This document shows positions 1,829 to 63,195 of a stretch of DNA of 64,000 nucleotides, one piece after another. Numbering within the stretch: the stretch's first letter is position 1; every line of letters begins with the position of its first letter. Below the pieces are notes generated by a model. That model did no database searches. It had not been told where the DNA came from and saw nothing but the letters and a program-made list of their open reading frames with translations. Position numbers and translations under genes: made by a program. The stretch is from a virus: positions 70,418 through 134,417 of IMG/VR virus record IMGVR_UViG_3300044716_001642; one strand, given 5' to 3'.

Positions 1829-2001
1829 GTTGATTACAATATATTTTTTTTACAAAAAATCAAAACAAATATTAGAACCAATATAAATAACGCTCATCTT
1901 GTATTTTTAAACTAATGCAGTTTTTTTTAAAATATTAAATAAATATAAATAATTCTAATCGTAACTGGATAAAGTTGCTCAGGTCTTGGGACGCGGAAGT
2001 T

Positions 2002-4053
2002 TTAGTTCGGAGTAAATGTCGCAGTAAGCGTTGACGAAGAAGTGTTGCTGTATCCATCTTCGCCATTCCATCCTGGGCACCACGTTCCAAATCCTACGAG
2101 GGACCGTCCGTCTACAACGATGGTCACACTATTTGGATATCCACATGGAGAGCTTTCCAAATCCGATGAGGCTTCGTGACCGCCGCCAGATAATGCTATG
2201 TAATAAAACCCGTCCTGTTCGCCAAGTTGATAGGAGATACTGCCAGAAATATAATAATCAACGGTATATGGATCGCTGCCTTCATAAGTATACGTCGCAT
2301 AAGCCGGACCAGACGCACTGACTGAGCCAGAACATCCAGAGGTTGATCCAGAGCCATTAAACGATCCGGAACCCTCAGAAGTCTTGCCATCAGCCGCCTC
2401 GCTCTCTGCGAAAGTCCCGCTCAACGTCCATGTTCCGCCGTTCTTATAAGCTAGATATTCTGCTTCACTTATCTCGAAAACATTTTTCCCAGAAGGTACT
2501 CCGTTACAAGATTCAATGCCACATTTATAACATTCATAGCAAGGGTAATCTCCCGTTCCGCTAGACGTCAGCACTATCTCCCCCTCTGGACATTGGAGAC
2601 CCGTTTCCACGTCATAAGAAGGATATGAACTTGACCATCCATTTTCAGTATCACACTCACAACATGTCCAGCATGTAATTCCTAGTGAGCTGCCTTCCAC
2701 GAACGTAACGTATGGTATATGATCACCCTCTGAGCACGGCAGGTTTTCTGGATAATATTCGGACCCACTAGGACAAGTGCAGTTTTTAGTCCCATAGACG
2801 TCTACATCATAATCGTCCTTGCATCCATTTGAATCCCTCCAGGTTCCAGGCTCGAAATTAGGGTTTCCCTGCGCGTCAAATGCGCAAATATTCTCTGGAG
2901 ATAATAAACCTCCACTGCTGTCCACAAGTATCCAATCTGGCACGCCATTTGGATCTTTTGCGCATTTGTAGCAGTCTACACTTGTTTTATCGTGATTTGG
3001 AGGACAAGTTTTTGTGAATTTTGTTGAAATTTCGCAATCACCTTCACAAGACGAACTATCAAAAGGTTCTTCGGGATAACCAAAATCAGAGCATGTGCAG
3101 CACAATGGCAAGCAAGAGGTAGTGACGCTATCTACAAAATCAATATGGCAACTCACGCCATTTAAACCTACGATATTTTTACCTCCCCAAACGCTTACAA
3201 CAGTAGTGGCTGACCCGGCTGCTGCGCAACTACCATTATACGTATAATCAATAGTAGTATTTTCTCCAATGGCGCCGCCGAATGAACCTGTCAATGTCTG
3301 ACCATTTGTTGTTACTTTTACAAAGTACGCGTCTCCATCGCAATTTCCGCTGTTTGAACCAATACTTACAGCGATTGCCGCTACATGAGTAACTTGACCT
3401 GTTGAGCCGCCATATTCATTGTGGCAAGTAGCTGTATCAAGAGAACTGGCTGAAACCGAAACGCTACTTGGGTAGGTTGGGTCCTTTGGCTCCGATGGAC
3501 CGGGGCTAGGACCAGGACCAGGACCAGGACCAGGACCCGTTGGTTGCTCTGTACCACCAGGGCCAGGGCCGGGGCCGCCGGGACCGGGGAAGGGACCGGG
3601 ACCTGTTTGTGTTGGTGGTTCTTCTGTTTCTGTTGGTGGTGGTTCTTCTGTTTCTGTTGGTGGTGGTTCTTCTGTGTCCGTTGGTGATGGCTCTTCTGTT
3701 TCTGTTGGTGATGGCTCTTCTGTTTCTGTTGGCGATGGTTCTTCTGTTTCTGTTGAGGTTTCCGTGCCTGACTCGGTTTCAGACTCGGTTTCAGATTCGG
3801 TTTCAGATTCGGTTTCAGATTCGGTTTCAGTAGGGGTTTCGGTTGGAAGTATAATGGATATGCTATTTGTACATGGTCCTGTGATTGATTTTATTACAAT
3901 TTCTTCTGAATCGTCTGAAACGCCAAGGACGAAACCTGCCAAAAGTTCTGCTTTTGTGAATATAACTTCCGTTTCAGATGGATATATGGTCGCGGACAGC
4001 AAGTCTCCAGTGTCCTCGCCAATTCCGCTTTCAGATTTCAAATAAACATCCAT
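2002..4053 (-). CDS. Large low-complexity, Cys-rich protein (683 aa), possibly a virion surface protein
   Basis: ETES x5, TETEEP(S/P)P-type x6, Gly-Pro run, then a Cys-rich region; function is inferred only. Confidence 0.75.
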   Translation of the reverse strand: MDVYLKSESGIGEDTGDLLSATIYPSETEVIFTKAELLAGFVLGVSDDSEEIVIKSITGPCTNSISIILPTETPTETESETESETESETESETESGTETSTETEEPSPTETEEPSPTETEEPSPTDTEEPPPTETEEPPPTETEEPPTQTGPGPFPGPGGPGPGPGGTEQPTGPGPGPGPGPSPGPSEPKDPTYPSSVSVSASSLDTATCHNEYGGSTGQVTHVAAIAVSIGSNSGNCDGDAYFVKVTTNGQTLTGSFGGAIGENTTIDYTYNGSCAAAGSATTVVSVWGGKNIVGLNGVSCHIDFVDSVTTSCLPLCCTCSDFGYPEEPFDSSSCEGDCEISTKFTKTCPPNHDKTSVDCYKCAKDPNGVPDWILVDSSGGLLSPENICAFDAQGNPNFEPGTWRDSNGCKDDYDVDVYGTKNCTCPSGSEYYPENLPCSEGDHIPYVTFVEGSSLGITCWTCCECDTENGWSSSYPSYDVETGLQCPEGEIVLTSSGTGDYPCYECYKCGIESCNGVPSGKNVFEISEAEYLAYKNGGTWTLSGTFAESEAADGKTSEGSGSFNGSGSTSGCSGSVSASGPAYATYTYEGSDPYTVDYYISGSISYQLGEQDGFYYIALSGGGHEASSDLESSPCGYPNSVTIVVDGRSLVGFGTWCPGWNGEDGYSNTSSSTLTATFTPN
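3610..3753 (-). repeat. Six imperfect 24-bp tandem repeats encoding T(E/D)TEEP(S/P)(P/T)
   Basis: Direct inspection of DNA and protein. Confidence 0.9.
3770..3829 (-). repeat. Five 12-bp tandem repeats (ga(c/t)tcggtttca on +) encoding ETES
   Basis: Direct inspection. Confidence 0.9.
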
Positions 4054-51493: not shown

Positions 51494-54400
51494 TTATACC
51501 ATTTGTTTTGGAGGTTGCTTGTCACCAGTTGCCTGTTTTGCAATTGTAGTGACTCTCTCAATGAATTCTGCAGAGGATAAAAATGCTGTTAAATCAGTTT
51601 TAATTTTATCAGCCACATTTGTTACCTCGGTTTTATTTTCACCAGCAGTTGAGTTTATTGAAAGGTTTACTGGAGCGCTTACGCTAACTGGTGCATTTCC
51701 ACTGCCGGTTCCAGAAATAGCTCCAGGTTGCGCGCCAGCCGCCTTTTGTTCAAAATCAGTTGCTATTTTTTGCACAACCTGTAGAATATTAGAAATTAAT
51801 TGAGCAGTATTTTCTGGTGTATTTTGCTGTGGAGCGGGCTGAGGTTTTCCATTTTTATTATCGTTTTGGGTAGGCGTAGGAGCAGAAGGTGGTATCGCCG
51901 AAGATGCAGGAAGAGTCTGTTTAGTATTGCTATTTAAATTATCAGAGGCAGCATTTGGAGCGGTAGTACTATCATCGGCTAAAGTATAAGTAGTCTGTAA
52001 TTTTTTTAAAGCCATGTACTTCTTATTAAATTCGTCCTGCTGATCTTGAGATTCAAATCCAGTTCTAGGATCAAATGTTACATTTCCTTCTTTATCAAAT
52101 TTAGTATATTGATCCATGAAACTATTAATTTCATCATTTTTAAATTTTTGAAGTATCTTTGCTTTATTTGCTGAGTCACTGGCTTGAGATATTGCCCTAG
52201 ATGCTGGCGTGGTAGTTGCGGGAGTAGGTTGAGTAGCATCAACAATCGGTTGAATAAGTGTAGCAGCTGGCTGAGTAGCTAAAGGAATACCAGATTTATT
52301 TTTTCCATCAACAGATTTTTCAAATTTTGTTCTCTGCTCTGGAGTAATTTGTTTTGTTATTTTTTGCTTTTCTCCCTCTATTACCCCCCTTTCAGATTCT
52401 AACCTTTTAATTTCATTCTGAATATTTTCAGAACCCTTCTGAGCTTTTTCTCTTCTAGCTAATTCATTAGCGATTAATTTTTTTCTATCATATTCATTTC
52501 CAACATACTCTCTCTGTCTCTCGTCAAATGAACCAGTTTTTCCATATTTATTTTTATATTCAGATTGAGACACCATATACCCACTTGCTTTTAAATTTTT
52601 ATCTATATACTCATCTCTAGTTGCATTAGATGTCTCTGCATATATTTTATTTAAATCTTGTCCAGTTCCCACCGCCTCATCAATCGCCGCAACCGCAGCG
52701 GGATTCGAATATTTACCACCAGGGAAAAAATTTTCAGGACTTGAATCCGCCCCCTGTTGTTTTAATTTTTCTATTTTGGCGTCAATATTGCTGCTTTGTC
52801 CAGCAAGAGATTCTTCTGTATCTAGCAGTTGTCCAATCTTTAAATTTTCTTCTTCGTTTTTAAATTTTTCAATTGCCGCCCCTATAGAAGAACTAATTGA
52901 AGCCCCGATTGATGTAGTAAGACTATCAGATTGACCCAGTATACTTTCATTTATAGTTGATAAAAGATCAGTTTGTTTAGTGCTTTGAGTCAATTGCAAT
53001 ATTCCAAGACCTTTGTCTGGTGCCATTTTTTCATAAGCTGCCTTCATTTCAGCCAAGTTTTGTTTTTCTTGACCAGAAGCGCCTTTTTTAGGCGCGAAAG
53101 CCGCATTAGCATAACTTTCTAATTGTTTTTCTACAATATTGCCCTTTAAAGTTTCAGGAACGCCAAGCTCTTTGTTTACTCTTGACTTCGCGTACACTTC
53201 AGAAGCCCGAACTTTCCCCCTATCTTTTTCTGGAATAATTGAGTTGAACTGACTTATTGCCCTTTCCGCCTCCACATTCTTTTTTTGACCGAATGAAGGT
53301 TTAAATGTTTTATTTTTTACATCCTCTTCGTACCCGAATTCAGCCATCTTTTCATTCATTATTTTTTGATATTCATCCGCAAGTGTCTGAGTTGCAGCCG
53401 AAACCTTTTTATTATCCAGTGCCATAATTGGAGCACCAAATGCTTCATTAGTAGCCTTTGCATTTTGAATAATTTGATTAGAAATGTCAGCATTTGGTTT
53501 TTCCCACTTACCAGGACTTGTTTGGAAAAAATATTCGCCATTTTTACTTTTACTAACATTGCTATTATTTTTAGAAGATTGACCAGCTATGTTCATTGCC
53601 GATTGCGTTTCTCTGATTGTATTTACAACATCAACATTCCCAGTAAGTACATCTTGCGACGAAGCTCCCCCTAAAAAATTTTGAGCCTCAGTCAATTTAA
53701 CTAAAGCCTCTTGATAAGCATTACTTTGAGCCAAAAGAGCCAATTGCTTTTCTTGATCTCTATTGCCCTTTTGCAAATTTTGATCAAGTTTTGAAAATCC
53801 GCTTTTACTAGTATTATCTAGCTTGTCTATTTCTGTTAGAGTAATATTAGATTCCTGAACACCACCCTTCTTAAATTCTGCCGTGATAGATGAAAGAGCA
53901 TCTTGGAATTTTGCGATATCTCCACTTTTATAAAAATCAGTTTGAGCAGCTTGCACATTCCCCTGTAATTGTAATTTTTTACTTTTAAAATCTTGCTCAG
54001 CCTGCGCAAGAGCGTCACCAGCAAGGCCAGAATCATTAAGCTGTAATGCCTGAATAACAGAAGAAAATTCTTCAGCAATATTTTTACCAGACTCAGCTAA
54101 AATATTAGTTCTTTCAATTTGTCCCTGATTTTTAATAGCCGTAATCTCGGCTGCCAACTTTTCAGACTTACCAGCCCTTCCAGCTCCAGCTTGATCAAAA
54201 AAACTCGACCTGAAGTCTCCGCGTTTTTGTTCAAATTCTGCTTTAAATTTTAAACTATCAATGAAGCTATCAATGGCGACCTGAGTTCTATTAGACGCAT
54301 CCTCTAAACCAGATGATAAGTTTAATAATATTTGATTATTTTTATCAAGTAAATCTTTCCTGGCTCTTTCCGCTGCCGCTGCTCTTTTTTGATTTTCCTG

Positions 54401-57400
54401 CAAAGATTTTATTTGCTCGTCCAATCTTCCGCTTTTGATATCATCAATTAATTTAGCCAAAGTTTCTTTAAAATCCTTCGCTTCTCCAGCGAAGCCCTCA
54501 TTATATGCTAATGCTTTAATTTGTGGAATAATTTCTTGCAAACTCTGCTTGCCTTCGGTAGAAATACTGCCCTGCCTCATCGCATCCTCAATTGCGGTTA
54601 TCATAGTTCTATTACTCGTCGCACCAGAGGAAACACTCACATCAATATATCTACCGATATTAGATAAATCCTCTTTATTCAATCCAGAACCCGAAGCAAT
54701 TTGAGCTGCTAAATCCTTGCCAATGCCCTGTATCGACTTTTTGTCTGTTTTACCTTCCGCAAATTGTCCAAGAGCAAAAGCATCATTTTTTGCCTTTTGA
54801 ACAGTACCGAGATCTTTTAAAATTTTAGTATATTCCTCCTGCCCCTTTCCTTGAGCCACAGCAGAAACCAAAGCGGCTCTTTGACTATCGCTTAATTTTA
54901 ACAATAGTTTAGAATACTCGTCCTGAACTTTAATCAATTGGGGCGCGGCACTTGGATCGGTGGAATTTGCTAATTCAGCATACCTCTCCGAAAGATTCAA
55001 AATAGCCTGCCCAGTTTCACCAAATCTATTAAATTCACTAGATGCCGCTTCTGCAGCTTTTGATAGCTCTGGTAATTTAGAGTTATATGCTTTCATTCCT
55101 TGCGTGAATGCGACCGTTGCACCAACAGCAGCACCAATTGCAGTACCATAGACTGGAATAATAGACCCAAGCGAAGCAAAGCTAGCGATAGTGCCCAATC
55201 CAGAGGTAGCGGCAGATATACCTTTCGCAAGACCGCTTTCTTGTCCAGCAAACTGGGCACCAATGTCGCCCGCAGCCTGGGCAGCAAAACCTATAGATAA
55301 AGCATTATTTGATAGAAAATTTTTCGCTTTTCCACCGAAGCCCGTTTCTTTTTTCTTGGTAGAAAGATTTTGATTCGTAACCTCAGATTCTTTAATTTTT
55401 TCAGTTAATAATTCACGATTCTGCTTATTAATATCTAATATAGATTTAATTTCTTTTTTTATAGCTTCAGCCTGCTGATTTCTTATGTCTATTATTTTTT
55501 TATTATTTTCAGCAATTTTAGAATCCATCCCAGCGCTTAGTTGAGGATTTTTTAACTTAGCCTGCTCATATCCCTTATTTTCGTTTTCTAAAGCTTTAGT
55601 CTGTTTGACCGCCTCCGCGTTTCCTGCACCCATCTTTAGATCATTCCTGAGGGTCGCTAATTCCTTCTGCCGACTTTTTATTTCGGCTTTTCTATTTGCT
55701 ATTTCAGAATCTATTTTTTTTAGTTCACCTTGTAAAGAATTTATTTCGGAAGCTTCAGCTTCACTGCGGCCCAAGAAAGCGAAATTTGGCACAAAACCAG
55801 AAGACATTCCGCCGCCATAAGTTTTTGGATTGCGACCCTCCTTCTTTGCCCTTTTAATCCCCTGAATTCCTCCACCCGGCTCATCGCGCCTATTTGCCAC
55901 CATTAAGCCCATTGGGTTATTTTTATTCTTTAAAGAACTATGGCTATCAACATATATTTGACTCTTGGATAATCCAGATGATTGTTCTCTTGCAATTGCG
56001 TCATTAAGAGCGCTTGAGAAATTGGGAATAAAACCTGCCGAATGTTGTGTTTGAAGATCAACCCCAAGACCGCCATATTCATCAGCCTCTACATTGCCAA
56101 AGAAGCTCTGAAGCTTTTTAGGATCTTTTTTTAATTCATTTATTTTAGCATTAACAAAAGAAGAAAACTGATCGCGGGTCATTTTTTCAACAGTCATGCC
56201 CTTATGACCATATACTTCAAACACAGAACTTTTAGCCAAGTCTGCTCTTTTAATTTGCGGATAAAGAGTTTCAGCAGAGACGGGTTCGCCATTTTTTATT
56301 TTTTGCAGCAATCTATTCATCTGGGGGAGCAATTGCCCCTTCATCTTTTTCCCAGCATTTCTTCTTATTGCTTCCTTATAAAGTCCCGAGCCAATTCCCT
56401 TGCCCCGTTCGCCCTTATTAACAGAAAAATCACCAACATCTATTTGCCCTTTTTTATCTTCAGCATAACTAAATGACCCAACTTTTTTACCGCCCATTAT
56501 AGCTTGAATCTCGCTGAAGCCAAATTCATCTTTATCTTTATAAGAATATGAAATACCAGAAGTTTTTGCAAAATTAGGAACAAAACCAGAAGAGGAAGAG
56601 GATGCAAGACCATTAACATCCACCCATTTTTTCAATGCGCTTTTTAAATTATCTGGAGTTCTTGATATTTTAGCTTCGTATTGCCCTGGGGCGTTATGGA
56701 AAAACTTTTTAAGCTCAGGTGTTGGAGCCGGAAAATCTATCCTTTGCGTTTGACTTATCGCTGGAGCATTAAACGCTTTTCTTAAAGCAGTTTCAAAAAC
56801 TGTACCAGCGGCAGACCCAACAGATCCAGCGTTATCCAATGAAGAGGCATCCGTTATTTGCTCTGTTCCACCAAAAGTTTTAATTATATTATTAGTAGCG
56901 CTAACCAATGCGTCACCCACTACTCCCTTAATCCCATATCTTTGCAAATTGGTTCCAGCAGTGTTTAGTCCAGCCGTCGCTATTTTAGCATCAAACAGTT
57001 TATTCCCAGCCTCCAGCGAAACATCAGCCGAACTAAGACCCTGATTTCCACCATGAACCATTGTATACCTATCTGATAAATCGAGTTTTTTTACATCAAG
57101 GTTTTTTTTCTTTGCGGTTTTTTCTTTATCAGTGGCTCGCATTGTTGTACCACCACCATACATAGCCTTAAATTTGCTCCCCATTGATGCAAAATTTGGG
57201 ACAAATCCAGAAGACATAGATTCCTTTATAGCGGAAGCAAAAATCAAATTTGGAGAAACAACATCTCTGCCATTATTTTTAAAAGTTTTTTTGGCAGAAG
57301 AATAAGCTGCACCTCTTAATGCTTTCTCTAGCAATTTTTTCTCTGATATCTTCTTTTGAAGAATCTTTACCTCAGCAAAAATATCTCCCTTTTTAAAATC

Positions 57401-59689
57401 TGGACCAACATAATCTTCTAATTTAGAAAAATCAGGATTATTATAAAAAAAATCTCTTTCGCCAAGCGCCCCCACTATTGGATTTATAGCATTTTCAGAA
57501 AAAGGTTTATCAAAATAATCTTTATTTAATTTTTTTCCGAATCCCCCAGGAATTCTTTTCATTAAATACTTATTTGCTTCATTTATATTTTGACCAGAAT
57601 TATTATAAACCCCTCTGGCTTCTTCAAAAATTGACCTTCCCTCTTGTCTATATTCTTCGTATTTTTTTGGCAGGCTCTGATATTTTAAAATTGCAGAATC
57701 ATCATACATGTCAAAAACCGGACCAGTATCATAAAGACCCCTTAAAGATGATCCAGACTTAAAGACGGATGCTATTCTTTTTTCAGCAAAATTAGGAATG
57801 AATCCATTTGCGGCATATTGAGTATTTTCACCAAATCCATTCGGCGGACGAACTATTGTGGCTTTTTTACCAGCAGCATTAGTAAAGGTCTTTACATCTT
57901 CTTTATTATTAACAAAAGATTTAAAGGACTTTCCATTACCATCGTGAATGGTTGTTTTTTTAGCCTTACCAGCCCTATAGCCATGCTCTCTAGCGCCAGC
58001 ATTTTCCATTGCCTGACCAACCGCCATGTCTGTGGCAAAACTTGGAATATATCCAGATGCCGCAACTTTTGTTTTTTTAACGGGCGCGGTCATTGGTATA
58101 CCAGAAGCCCCAACGGAAACACCCTTCATTGCCAAATTAGCGCCTATAACCTTACTCAATCTTTCCTGTTCTCTTAAAATATTTGATTGCGCGGTCAAAT
58201 AATCCAACATTTGCTTTTCAGCCTGAACAGTTGTCATTTTGCCAGCTAATATTTGACTAGTAAATTGGCTGTTCTTCTGTAAGATGCTCAGTATACTTTG
58301 TTCTATCGCCGCCTGTTGCTGCGCAGCCTTATTTGTTCCAAGCAATTCTTTAGCTGAACCAGCGGCAAACTGCCCAAGCCTAGCAAATAGTTTTACTAAA
58401 ACCGCTGTTGCTAAAACAGCACCCGGCCCACTTATAAAATTACTAACACCTTTGAAAAATCCCTCCATTAATTTTCCACCAGCGCTCTCTGAATCTATAT
58501 TATTAAAAGATTCTAACAAATTATTAAATCCAGACAAAAATCCTTTGGCATTTGGCTCAAAAACAATTGTTCCAATTTTATTTGCCGCTTCTTCTAGACT
58601 TGCTACAGTTTGAGCAGAAAGAGCAGATACAGTTTTATTTAAAAGTTCATTTCTTCTAATAGCCTGATCAGTAGATCCTAAAGAAGTTTGTAAGGCTTGC
58701 CCATATATACTATATTCTTTTCCAAGGTCAGCGAGGGCGGCTTTTAAAATGTTAATTTGAAAAACGCCGCCAACTTGCTCCGCCACAGCGGATTTTTGTG
58801 CAGCTCCCAACGTATCATAAGTAGAAGCCAGTTGTTGAAGCAAACTAACTGCACTTTGCCCCTCGGAAGTATTCACTCCAAGCGATCCAAGCAAGTCCTG
58901 AACTTTTCCACGTTGTAAACGCGTAAAAATCGTTTTAAACGAGTTACCAATAACAGCGCCACCACGGGCGGTTGTTTGTTGCGCAGAAGTAACTAAAGCA
59001 ATTAATTCATCCAATGAAACGCCAGCGTCAACAGCGGTAGAGCCAACTCGACTAATAGCGTTAGCCAAATCAGCTGAGCTAACAGCAAAAGCCGCATCGA
59101 CGTTTGCTAATTTATTAACAACCTCAACCGCATCTAAAGCCGATCCAGAAAACGAATTCAAGGTAGCTGTTAACGCCTCAACGCTAGATTTGGCATCTAA
59201 ACCGCTCAACCTTGTTAAAATAAGAGCGGCATTGGTTCTTTTTAATGTCTCCTCAACTCCCAAGCCTTGACGAGAAAGCTCTGTCGCCGCCGCAGCAACC
59301 TCTGAAAAAGATTGAGCTGTATTTCTAGCTATATCAAAAAGACTACCGCCAAATTTTTCCAAACTAGAAGAGGAAAGATTGAGCAACACGTTAACATCAG
59401 CCAACTGCTTTTGAACATTTATTGTTGAAGAAATTAAAGATGAGAGAGCTTTTTCTACGGCAAAAATCGCACCAGCAGATGCACCGAAAGCCACAACGCG
59501 GGCATTAGACGCTTCTAAACTTTTATTGAATTCAGAAACCTGCCCAGTTATTCTTCCAAGAGCCTGAGAACTTTTCTTCGTATTGATTTGTGAAAGTTCA
59601 ACAGTTTGAAGAGCCTTCAGGATATCTCTCTCCATACCCCTGGTATTTGCTCTTACATCAATAGTTGCCGTAGTTAAATTGTCAGCCAT
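51494..59689 (-). CDS. Tail tape measure protein (2731 aa) with an internal motif-delimited module array
   Basis: TP901-like core (ELSRQGLG...SLDELIALVTSAQQTTARGGAVIGNSFKTIFTRL), long coiled-coil and Gly/Ala hydrophobic segments, position after chaperone-like genes. Confidence 0.9.
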   Translation of the reverse strand: MADNLTTATIDVRANTRGMERDILKALQTVELSQINTKKSSQALGRITGQVSEFNKSLEASNARVVAFGASAGAIFAVEKALSSLISSTINVQKQLADVNVLLNLSSSSLEKFGGSLFDIARNTAQSFSEVAAAATELSRQGLGVEETLKRTNAALILTRLSGLDAKSSVEALTATLNSFSGSALDAVEVVNKLANVDAAFAVSSADLANAISRVGSTAVDAGVSLDELIALVTSAQQTTARGGAVIGNSFKTIFTRLQRGKVQDLLGSLGVNTSEGQSAVSLLQQLASTYDTLGAAQKSAVAEQVGGVFQINILKAALADLGKEYSIYGQALQTSLGSTDQAIRRNELLNKTVSALSAQTVASLEEAANKIGTIVFEPNAKGFLSGFNNLLESFNNIDSESAGGKLMEGFFKGVSNFISGPGAVLATAVLVKLFARLGQFAAGSAKELLGTNKAAQQQAAIEQSILSILQKNSQFTSQILAGKMTTVQAEKQMLDYLTAQSNILREQERLSKVIGANLAMKGVSVGASGIPMTAPVKKTKVAASGYIPSFATDMAVGQAMENAGAREHGYRAGKAKKTTIHDGNGKSFKSFVNNKEDVKTFTNAAGKKATIVRPPNGFGENTQYAANGFIPNFAEKRIASVFKSGSSLRGLYDTGPVFDMYDDSAILKYQSLPKKYEEYRQEGRSIFEEARGVYNNSGQNINEANKYLMKRIPGGFGKKLNKDYFDKPFSENAINPIVGALGERDFFYNNPDFSKLEDYVGPDFKKGDIFAEVKILQKKISEKKLLEKALRGAAYSSAKKTFKNNGRDVVSPNLIFASAIKESMSSGFVPNFASMGSKFKAMYGGGTTMRATDKEKTAKKKNLDVKKLDLSDRYTMVHGGNQGLSSADVSLEAGNKLFDAKIATAGLNTAGTNLQRYGIKGVVGDALVSATNNIIKTFGGTEQITDASSLDNAGSVGSAAGTVFETALRKAFNAPAISQTQRIDFPAPTPELKKFFHNAPGQYEAKISRTPDNLKSALKKWVDVNGLASSSSSGFVPNFAKTSGISYSYKDKDEFGFSEIQAIMGGKKVGSFSYAEDKKGQIDVGDFSVNKGERGKGIGSGLYKEAIRRNAGKKMKGQLLPQMNRLLQKIKNGEPVSAETLYPQIKRADLAKSSVFEVYGHKGMTVEKMTRDQFSSFVNAKINELKKDPKKLQSFFGNVEADEYGGLGVDLQTQHSAGFIPNFSSALNDAIAREQSSGLSKSQIYVDSHSSLKNKNNPMGLMVANRRDEPGGGIQGIKRAKKEGRNPKTYGGGMSSGFVPNFAFLGRSEAEASEINSLQGELKKIDSEIANRKAEIKSRQKELATLRNDLKMGAGNAEAVKQTKALENENKGYEQAKLKNPQLSAGMDSKIAENNKKIIDIRNQQAEAIKKEIKSILDINKQNRELLTEKIKESEVTNQNLSTKKKETGFGGKAKNFLSNNALSIGFAAQAAGDIGAQFAGQESGLAKGISAATSGLGTIASFASLGSIIPVYGTAIGAAVGATVAFTQGMKAYNSKLPELSKAAEAASSEFNRFGETGQAILNLSERYAELANSTDPSAAPQLIKVQDEYSKLLLKLSDSQRAALVSAVAQGKGQEEYTKILKDLGTVQKAKNDAFALGQFAEGKTDKKSIQGIGKDLAAQIASGSGLNKEDLSNIGRYIDVSVSSGATSNRTMITAIEDAMRQGSISTEGKQSLQEIIPQIKALAYNEGFAGEAKDFKETLAKLIDDIKSGRLDEQIKSLQENQKRAAAAERARKDLLDKNNQILLNLSSGLEDASNRTQVAIDSFIDSLKFKAEFEQKRGDFRSSFFDQAGAGRAGKSEKLAAEITAIKNQGQIERTNILAESGKNIAEEFSSVIQALQLNDSGLAGDALAQAEQDFKSKKLQLQGNVQAAQTDFYKSGDIAKFQDALSSITAEFKKGGVQESNITLTEIDKLDNTSKSGFSKLDQNLQKGNRDQEKQLALLAQSNAYQEALVKLTEAQNFLGGASSQDVLTGNVDVVNTIRETQSAMNIAGQSSKNNSNVSKSKNGEYFFQTSPGKWEKPNADISNQIIQNAKATNEAFGAPIMALDNKKVSAATQTLADEYQKIMNEKMAEFGYEEDVKNKTFKPSFGQKKNVEAERAISQFNSIIPEKDRGKVRASEVYAKSRVNKELGVPETLKGNIVEKQLESYANAAFAPKKGASGQEKQNLAEMKAAYEKMAPDKGLGILQLTQSTKQTDLLSTINESILGQSDSLTTSIGASISSSIGAAIEKFKNEEENLKIGQLLDTEESLAGQSSNIDAKIEKLKQQGADSSPENFFPGGKYSNPAAVAAIDEAVGTGQDLNKIYAETSNATRDEYIDKNLKASGYMVSQSEYKNKYGKTGSFDERQREYVGNEYDRKKLIANELARREKAQKGSENIQNEIKRLESERGVIEGEKQKITKQITPEQRTKFEKSVDGKNKSGIPLATQPAATLIQPIVDATQPTPATTTPASRAISQASDSANKAKILQKFKNDEINSFMDQYTKFDKEGNVTFDPRTGFESQDQQDEFNKKYMALKKLQTTYTLADDSTTAPNAASDNLNSNTKQTLPASSAIPPSAPTPTQNDNKNGKPQPAPQQNTPENTAQLISNILQVVQKIATDFEQKAAGAQPGAISGTGSGNAPVSVSAPVNLSINSTAGENKTEVTNVADKIKTDLTAFLSSAEFIERVTTIAKQATGDKQPPKQMV
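55778..58063 (-). repeat. Six dispersed copies of the protein motif xxxG(F/Y)(I/V)P(N/S)F(A/S) within the tape measure protein
   Basis: Copies at 58034-58063, 57785-57814, 57188-57217, 56567-56596, 56015-56044 and 55778-55807. Confidence 0.92.
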
Positions 59690-61717: not shown

Positions 61718-61951
61718 TTAAACTAATTCTAAATTCGAAAAAATCGAATCAATTTGTTCATTAATATTTCTCAGGGCAGAATTACCTTTATCCAAAATTT
61801 CTTTTCTTTTCGAGTTATATTCATCTTCTGATATAGCGCCCCTATTCATTAATTCTTCCACATACAGCAAGTGAGAAATAAAAACATACTTCACTTCTTT
61901 CTCAACTTTTTGCGAAAGAAATTTATCAAAATAAAATTCAAATTTTTGCAT
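61718..61951 (-). CDS. Hypothetical protein with SHOCT-like motif
   Basis: EELMNRGAISEDEYNSKRKEIL. Confidence 0.6.
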   Translation of the reverse strand: MQKFEFYFDKFLSQKVEKEVKYVFISHLLYVEELMNRGAISEDEYNSKRKEILDKGNSALRNINEQIDSIFSNLELV

Positions 61952-62100: not shown

Positions 62101-63195
62101 TTACGCTGGATAGCTACCAGAAATAAATACACCCTTTGTTAAGTCTTCTGGACCGCTGATACTTGCTTCGTACTCAAGAGTGACAGAAGCGTTGTCACCG
62201 ATTGAAGTAGAAACGTTTTCAGACAATAATTTAGCCCCCTTGATTTGTGCCAAAATTGCCGGAGCACCAGCCCCAGAACAATCATTCTTCTTAAGAGTAA
62301 TTGCTATATCATAAAATCCAGTTTCGCAAAGAAGATCAGCTAAATTGAAATCACTCAAATCACCCATTTGAGCCTCGACAGAAAGCGAAGCGGTAATAGG
62401 AAAATCAATTTCTCTACTGAATGGAAAACGGCTTCCAAGTTTTTCAATTGGAGTTCTGCCCAAATCAGTTGATAAAGTAAAACTTTGAATTTTTATATCA
62501 CTAGAATCAAAACCTTTAACTTGATTATTTGTCAAAGCAAAAGTAATATCACCAGGTCTAAGAACTGTAACCTGGCTGCTATTGTCATTTTGCGTAGCCA
62601 CTGGAAGTTTAAAATAAGATCCTGTAATCTTGGTTCCACTAGCTGCGTTAATTGACGGAACTGGGCTTATTGCAGTAGCTTGCGAATAAACTGCAAAGTT
62701 GAGAGCCTCGAAGTCGGCGCTAGCAGTCGGGACATCTCCAACTGAAGCTTCTAAAGAATAAGATGTTAAAAAGCAATTACCAACGCCGAAAACGCCAGTT
62801 TTCACATTGCTGTAATTAACAGCATCGCTTCCTTCGTTCGCAACTGTCAAGAAATAATTCTTTTCATCTGTTTCTTTCTTAAGAATACCAGATAATAATG
62901 CGGTTGGCGCAGCACCAGAAGCACACACACTAAGACCAATATATTTTTCATTTGATCCGTCTGTCGGATACCACGAAGTACTCATGTTCACAGTAGGGGC
63001 TTCAACCTCGATACGATCGATAGCAGCAAGTTGACCATACTGGTTAATATCAGTGAAATTTCTTGAAAAATCAGAGTCCCAACTTTGAACTCGCGTAAGT
63101 TGTTTTATTGTGCCGTCACCGGTATGCATTGCGGCAACGCCAGTTTGTCCAGCATAAAGAGCCAGACTTTGATATATGATACGATTTCTTGCCAT
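62101..63195 (-). CDS. Putative major tail (tube) protein (364 aa)
   Basis: Beta-rich; own upstream motif and strong terminator; tube-chaperones-tape measure gene order. Confidence 0.6.
   Translation of the reverse strand: MARNRIIYQSLALYAGQTGVAAMHTGDGTIKQLTRVQSWDSDFSRNFTDINQYGQLAAIDRIEVEAPTVNMSTSWYPTDGSNEKYIGLSVCASGAAPTALLSGILKKETDEKNYFLTVANEGSDAVNYSNVKTGVFGVGNCFLTSYSLEASVGDVPTASADFEALNFAVYSQATAISPVPSINAASGTKITGSYFKLPVATQNDNSSQVTVLRPGDITFALTNNQVKGFDSSDIKIQSFTLSTDLGRTPIEKLGSRFPFSREIDFPITASLSVEAQMGDLSDFNLADLLCETGFYDIAITLKKNDCSGAGAPAILAQIKGAKLLSENVSTSIGDNASVTLEYEASISGPEDLTKGVFISGSYPA

Follow-up and report, generated by a model that had tools for sequence, protein, structure and literature searches.

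The tape measure gene and its motif array

The window considered here is a 64,000-base stretch of viral DNA (positions 70,418 to 134,417 of IMG/VR record IMGVR_UViG_3300044716_001642) that makes up the 3' half of the record, which is 134,417 bases long and an estimated ~70% complete. A single open reading frame on its minus strand (gene P0001, 51494..59689) encodes a tape measure protein (TMP) of 2,731 residues, in which copies of a short peptide motif fence off a row of modules; this array is the subject of the present analysis. Pfam PF10145 (PhageMin_Tail) matches residues 122-308 with an E value of 3.5e-25 (89.5 bits, against a cut-off of 33.2), and PHROG tail length tape measure families match with E values down to 9e-41. 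By these profile matches, the gene encodes a real TMP of the TP901 type.

Three parts of the protein can be distinguished, all encoded on the minus strand. The N-terminal core (residues 1-545, 58055..59689), which contains the PF10145 domain at window positions 58766-59326 and a hydrophobic stretch at residues 414-444, is 80-97% identical across the close relatives compared. The motif array follows, and then a post-array part (55004..55777) that, as read from the translation, comprises a charged heptad-like region at residues 1305-1470 and a Gly/Ala-rich hydrophobic region at residues 1478-1562, with a hydropathy peak at residues 1493-1529. The protein therefore has the helical/coiled-coil body and the hydrophobic segments looked for in a TMP, and the array lies between the PF10145 core and the heptad-like and hydrophobic regions, as had been proposed from the letters alone in an earlier reading of the window (the original prediction).

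In its strict form, G[FY][IV]P[NS]F[AS], the motif was found six times in the TMP, whereas 2,000 shuffled versions of this protein contained not a single copy. Numbered from the invariant glycine, the copies are GYIPSFA at residues 546-552 (58034..58054), GFIPNFA at 629-635 (57785..57805), GFVPNFA at 828-834 (57188..57208), GFVPNFA at 1035-1041 (56567..56587), GFIPNFS at 1219-1225 (56015..56035; the point at which extra modules sit in relatives) and GFVPNFA at 1298-1304 (55778..55798), all on the minus strand. The six motif strings of the original prediction are all present, and its coordinates for the array, 55778-58063, are exactly right. The five segments fenced by these copies measure 76, 192, 200, 177 and 72 residues; the values of 73, 189, 197, 174 and 69 given previously follow from a ten-residue rather than a seven-residue motif. 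BLAST clustering and profile-profile comparison both bear out the earlier claim that the five segments are mutually unrelated.

Whole modules are gained, lost and replaced at the motif

A search with TMP residues 540-1310 recovered 153 giant relatives of 1,500-4,600 residues, all from metagenomes and nearly all with PF10145; motif and module counts refer to the 120 of these that were listed. The search for motif arrays proposed in the original prediction recovered them in abundance, with 782 copies of a slightly relaxed motif in the 120 relatives, where shuffling predicts 1.35. The consensus reads [A/L][A/S][S/G]-G-[F/Y]-[V/I]-P-N-F-A, within which the glycine and proline are 100% and the asparagine 98% invariant. 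Beyond this set, a profile of the last module of the array (cluster c1, both motifs included) matched at least 939 clusters at 50% identity with an E value of 0.001 or lower, 674 of them at 1e-10 or lower, and most of the best 150 matches are proteins of 1,400-5,400 residues. Those that reach 1,500 residues contain a median of 5 and a maximum of 14 motif copies.

Cutting the 120 relatives at the motif yielded 662 modules in 113 BLAST clusters (52 singletons), of which profile comparison merged only three small superfamilies, {3,9,23,27,15,30}, {13,20} and {4,10}. The 45 largest families range in length from 58 to 514 residues. Typically, the core is followed by c2 (76 residues), a variable slot, c3, the GNAT-like c4, optional modules, c1 (70 residues) and the C-terminal body, the optional modules including c7, which has an invariant HExxH, and c5, which has a P-loop-like start. 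The window protein has the architecture c2-c13-c3-c4-c1. Among 98 proteins of at least 2,000 residues, 91 architectures were counted, and the relative order is constant for 97% of the pairs of module clusters that co-occur. Thus, the diversity arises mostly by insertion, loss and slot replacement, not by free shuffling. Modules that were both invariant and collinear across relatives would, together with a lack of enzyme folds and of processing at the motif, have indicated a purely structural repeat according to the original prediction; the modules are not invariant, although their order is largely collinear.

Comparison of the window protein with individual relatives revealed replacement within otherwise closely similar arrays. 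In P0008, the core is 92% and module 1 97% identical, slot 2 is occupied by an unrelated module of 236 residues, and modules 3, 4 and 5 are 100, 90 and 97% identical, with 31% identity over the next 400 residues. In P0011, the core is 97% and module 1 92% identical, slot 2 holds another unrelated module, of 172 residues, and modules 3, 4 and 5 are 88, 94 and 100% identical, with 100% identity over the next 400 residues. Module 2 is also exchanged for unrelated modules in P0009, P0010 and P0012. Insertion was observed in P0002 and P0003, which are 95 and 94% identical to the window protein over residues 1-1230 and then have two extra modules, one with HExxH and one other, before the shared last module.

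The junctions of these exchanges fall within the motif. Between the window and L002, DNA homology stops at nucleotide 3673 of the gene and restarts at nucleotide 3655, motif copy 5 spanning nucleotides 3655-3675, and a 1.45-kb insertion in L012 is bounded in the same manner at motif copy 4. In five pairwise comparisons, these two included, the homology breaks inside the 21-nucleotide motif. At the protein level, residues -4 to -1 vary with the module that precedes them and those from +6 on with the module that comes next, and the switch takes place within the invariant core of the motif. Entire modules are thus acquired, dropped or swapped from lineage to lineage at joins that lie within the motif peptide, and the proposed test of modules that vary between conserved flanks gave a positive answer, with flanks 88-100% identical around the replacements in P0008 and P0011 and insertions in P0002, P0003 and L012. 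A 2023 survey of mosaicism in phage proteins confirmed no genuine recent mosaic TMP (PMC10684548); the present family supplies clean cases.

Two further observations concern the extent of this mosaicism. In L020 (5104-5148), two motif copies stand one residue apart, an arrangement that resembles the scar of a whole-module deletion. The body after the last motif (window 51494-55777, residues 1305-2731) is also mosaic, its first 400 residues being 100% identical in P0011, 58% in P0003 and 28-31% in most others, despite array modules that are 88-100% identical.

Breakpoints inside the 21-nucleotide motif and the scar-like pair in L020 are what would be seen if the motif were chiefly a DNA-level recombination anchor, providing homology for cassette swaps with the peptide as a passenger. 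The original prediction had included such an anchor, but as a signal of DNA homology it does not stand up. Across 74 motif copies, drawn from 15 genes, the third positions of the codons match the background codon usage of the genes; the mean pairwise identity of the 21 nucleotides is 81%, and the longest exact runs shared between the six copies of the window protein are 5-14 nucleotides. The free synonymous variation and the short exact runs, together with the near-complete invariance of the glycine, proline and asparagine, indicate that selection acts on the peptide and not on a DNA signal. What is conserved in the motif is thus the protein sequence and not the DNA. Survival of only those joins that stay in frame and retain the peptide would place junctions at the motif just as well, and the junctions fit microhomology joins filtered for such products. 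An anchor acting through DNA homology is consequently a very unlikely explanation of the motif.

Properties of the fenced modules

The first and last modules of the array act as its bookends. Module 1 (cluster c2, 76 residues, 57806..58033, minus strand) is the first module in most relatives and has a mean column identity of 85% over 12 loci; it matched no Pfam or PHROG family. Module 5 (cluster c1, 72 residues, 55799..56014, minus strand) has a mean column identity of 86% and, with 113 instances in the 120 relatives, is the most widespread module. Both are orphans without a family match, yet they are ~85% conserved across loci, much more so than the cargo modules between them. A predicted complex of three module 5 copies with both motifs scored 0.00, but the fold of the module itself is uncertain in this prediction, which provides no evidence either way.

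Module 4 (cluster c4, 177 residues, 56036..56566, minus strand) resembles a GNAT acetyltransferase. Pfam Acetyltransf_1 is matched with an E value of 9e-4 (20.0 bits, against a cut-off of 20.7), and the GNAT acetyl-CoA motif A, R-x-x-G-x-G, is invariant in the alignment (R-G-K-G-I-G). The profile of this module also matches the IAA acetyltransferase of PDB entry 1y9k with an E value of 6.9e-4, over only ~55 residues, and several relatives carry precomputed matches to PF00583 or PF14542.

Module 3 (cluster c3, 200 residues, 56588..57187, minus strand) is predicted to be a compact alpha/beta domain. The AF2 model, built from a 14-sequence alignment, has a mean pLDDT of 74.7 and a compact alpha/beta core; the pLDDT means of ten-residue blocks lie at 71-92 for the greater part of the model between residues ~31 and 200 and fall to 61 for residues 151-160. 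Both flanking motifs have values below 50, which argues that they are not part of the module 3 domain. The conserved pattern is E...D...E-x-K: E142, D161 and K183 are invariant in the 14 sequences, and E171-A-K173 was also seen in a five-sequence alignment. Module 2 (cluster c13, 192 residues, 57209..57784, minus strand), which occupies the exchangeable slot, has invariant residues E119, D121, D139 and K155 in the local pattern G-E-x-D ... P-D ... E-V-K, a PD-(D/E)xK-like arrangement. The protein atlas provided only weak leads from module 2 to the PD-(D/E)xK clan (scores of 0.80-0.81), and its profile gave no useful match against PDB sequences. For module 3, the profile search of PDB sequences gave nothing and the atlas no usable match.

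These results bear on whether the modules are enzymes. Modules 2 and 3 show the conserved residues of the PD-(D/E)xK pattern, and it is by this residue pattern only that they are assigned to it. The AF2 model of module 2 is poor, with a mean pLDDT of 55.7; Foldseek searches of PDB and BFVD with the module 3 model gave no match at an E value of 0.001 or lower, and a wide structure search (VIA) gave a best Z of 3.5, with Cfr10I (Z 3.0) and Bse634I (Z 2.9) within noise. Database evidence of an enzyme family was obtained for module 4 alone, from a match just under the Pfam cut-off. These points weigh against the cargo reading put forward below. The view that the three long modules are globular and enzymatic is accordingly upheld only in part: module 3 is predicted to be globular and module 4 has GNAT motif A, whereas for modules 2 and 3 the enzymatic part comes down to conserved PD-(D/E)xK-like residues.

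Alternatively, the array might do no more than set length or fill space in the ruler, with modules that have no activity and with the peptide as a structural repeat. Such a role would suit the observations that nearly all modules are Pfam orphans (four giants with 12-14 motif copies each have only PF10145 above the cut-off), that module order is so nearly collinear and that module 3 lacks a fold match. It is difficult to reconcile with unrelated modules that vary almost ninefold in length and are swapped between near-identical phages, which is unlike a periodic structural repeat, and with the GNAT cofactor motif of module 4, the invariant acidic/Lys patterns of modules 2 and 3 and the HExxH and P-loop modules of some relatives. 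We regard a spacer role as most improbable.

Among the modules of relatives, the HExxH module (c7) comprises 191 residues, is fenced by the motif and occurs in 20 of the 120 relatives (L002:11572-12147, and also L012, L017, L022, L023 and L005). H40, E41 and H44 are invariant, as are D120, E121 and E128. No Pfam family was matched at an E value of 0.1 or lower, and comparison of the profile with PDB sequences matched no solved peptidase. On the basis of its residue pattern, this module is a candidate in-built metallopeptidase and possibly a protease acting in cis. The c5 module (170 residues, L003:13634-14143), present in 23 relatives, has a P-loop-like start and weak Pfam matches to STAND/AAA NTPases with E values of 0.02-0.1, all below cut-offs.

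Muralytic domains also occur in relatives, namely GH19 (chitinase/lysozyme-like) at residues 2347-2398 of P0099 and VanY at residues 1632-1714 of P0104, and a GH19 or VanY domain lies at residues 1018-1070 of P0163, in the C-terminal body and outside the array. These cell-wall domains are unfenced and well removed from the last motif on its C-terminal side, so that the family has two separate places for extra domains.

Two short proteins from ENA contigs of 203,576 and 191,020 bases, P0211 (172 residues) and P0215 (256 residues), consist of a c1 bookend with motifs in an open reading frame that ends or starts at the motif; P0215 begins M-A-D, directly followed by the motif. Either a TMP is naturally split at the motif in these cases, or large phages with a reassigned stop codon have yielded broken gene calls. 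The pair P0242 and P0137 was considered as a further split at the motif and rejected, the 2,405-residue protein being divided inside a module.

A putative carrier of exchangeable cargo

Taken together, the data are best explained by a TMP that doubles as a carrier of exchangeable cargo, a reading to which we assign a probability of roughly 0.6. The array would be a row of separately built modules, each fenced by the peptide, between the TMP core and the coiled-coil/hydrophobic part, and the motif peptide is predicted to be unstructured between modules. TMPs exit the tail at infection. Given this, and given that the array is N-terminal of the post-array hydrophobic stretch, as is the RNA polymerase in gp96 of Thermus phage P23-45, the modules probably reach the host. 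They would enter ahead of or together with the DNA and, by the same analogy, probably act before phage genes are expressed. In the window phage, the cargo would consist of two nuclease-like modules and one GNAT-like module, and the motif peptide would be read by one conserved partner.

P23-45 gp96 is a TMP of 5,002 residues, the N-terminal part of which is a virion RNA polymerase; the enzyme lies in the virion, N-terminal of membrane segments, and transcribes the entering DNA minutes after infection (PMC10770324). The window protein resembles it in being a giant TMP with its array N-terminal of a hydrophobic stretch, in the position of the cytoplasm-acting enzyme of gp96. It differs from the window TMP in its single, fixed enzyme and in having neither a repeated delimiter nor any cassette exchange on record.

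How the peptide would be read is less clear. The role that we favour is that of a cutting site at which the modules are released, in the manner of viral polyproteins and multi-core peptide precursors, and we hold this to be plausible, if somewhat short of probable. Like polyproteins, in which a protease cuts at the repeated site, the TMPs have a repeated conserved site between units, with six copies here and 782 in the 120 relatives. Cutting is favoured by this analogy, by the processing proposed for phage polyvalent proteins (PMC5512222) and by the HExxH module of some relatives. A protease-free variant can also be envisaged, in which the invariant asparagine before phenylalanine would cyclise and break the chain upon assembly or expulsion of the TMP. 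Asn-dependent cleavage of this type matures the capsids of nodaviruses (Asn|Ala) and tetraviruses (Asn|Phe) and also operates in the FlhB/YscU export switch. Self-cutting of this kind is a long shot for the present motif; if true, infection would begin with the discharge of a programmable protein set from the phage tail into the host. A likeness of the motif to the C-terminal peptide of FtsZ or to the tail of SSB, and an isopeptide cross-link formed by the asparagine, were set aside as overly speculative.

The same peptide might instead be an assembly or docking element, binding the tail assembly chaperone or the lumen of the tube, or registering TMP chains where there is no coiled coil; the modules would then stay tethered to the TMP, and any activity of theirs would be confined to the mouth of the TMP channel. 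In favour of docking, virions contain gp96 uncut, at its full size and with an active RNA polymerase (PMC10770324), which makes tethered action a live alternative. A short hydrophobic/aromatic motif with small flanking residues in a predicted unstructured linker is, moreover, typical of docking motifs, and the bookends are conserved as structural adapters would be. The failure of a search with the HExxH module to find a protease candidate in this genome and the confinement of the motif to the TMP also fit docking. Against it, no partner is known, PHROGs and Pfam recognised no family for the two genes immediately upstream of the TMP, and docking by itself leaves unexplained why every kind of module has the peptide on both sides. 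We consider this role only a little less likely than cutting.

Several results weigh against the cargo reading, in addition to the uncut state of gp96; the first two given here tell, as does gp96, against cutting in particular. The motif was absent from every other open reading frame, in any frame, of the whole 134,417-base record; being private to the TMP, it is not a site common to head-maturation substrates. The HExxH module had no match in this 134-kb, ~70%-complete record, in which a general protease survey was not done. The maturation-protease site of the original prediction accordingly finds no direct support in this genome. Folded modules of 200 residues from several TMP chains may, moreover, not fit inside the tail tube. 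Finally, no cultured relatives were found: a tblastn search of 50,697 phage records with the array region (residues 540-1310) gave no match, and a search with the N-terminal core gave only TMPs, from cultured Bacillus, Lactococcus and Mammaliicoccus phages, at 24-31% identity.

Known systems share individual features with the cargo-carrier arrangement. Polyvalent proteins combine 2-15 unrelated and often enzymatic domains per polypeptide in fast-varying architectures; both their entry into the host alongside the DNA and their processing through a metallopeptidase of their own have been proposed (Iyer, Burroughs, Anand, de Souza, Aravind 2017, PMC5512222). The window TMP is similar in joining several unrelated domains in one phage polypeptide (five modules here, and up to 14 motif copies in relatives of at least 1,500 residues). 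For polyvalent proteins, however, no fixed delimiter peptide is described, and TMPs are never mentioned (0 occurrences in PMC5512222). Of the polyvalent signature domains (MPTase, ArdC-N, helicase, methylase, LPD), none was detected in the window TMP, the only hit being LPD39 at an E value of 0.098.

In polymorphic toxins, too, a short peptide (VENN in CdiA, PMC3482391) borders a constant part and exchangeable cassettes, but there one C-terminal toxin follows the demarcating motif, whereas many internal cassettes are found here. A folded enzyme domain beside the ruler role is also known from TMPs with cell-wall enzymes, namely T5 pb2 and those of mycobacteriophage TM4 and staphylococcal phage phiIPLA35. 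Those domains attack peptidoglycan, whereas the GH19 and VanY domains of the present family lie outside the array. Literature searches found no relevant paper with the motif strings and no description of a cargo, effector or mosaic arrangement in TMPs. TMPs with embedded enzymes and polyvalent proteins are known already; what is new here is the fixed delimiter and the exchange of cassettes.

If the modules are delivered, a large family of uncultured phages (the at least 939 clusters matched by the c1 profile) would use the tail ruler as a plug-in carrier acting before phage gene expression, and ~100 domain families without known relatives would become candidates for anti-defence or host take-over functions. 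The fixed seven-residue border could, in addition, offer a ready-made rule of design for equipping phage tails with foreign proteins.

The surroundings of the TMP gene add some context. PHROGs and Pfam gave almost nothing for the ten neighbouring genes. In keeping with the TMP identity, a weakly tail-tube-like gene (62101..63195, minus strand) lies 2.4 kb upstream of the TMP, its match to Pfam Phage_tube_2 (E value of 0.0044) being below the cut-off. Between the two, an open reading frame of 77 residues (window 61718-61951, minus strand) has a SHOCT-like C-terminal segment with a Pfam E value of 2.1e-5, just under the cut-off. One relative was assigned by its source to a Bacteroidota bin. The G+C content of the window rises to 0.47 at positions 2001-4000 and is ~0.33 in the remainder.

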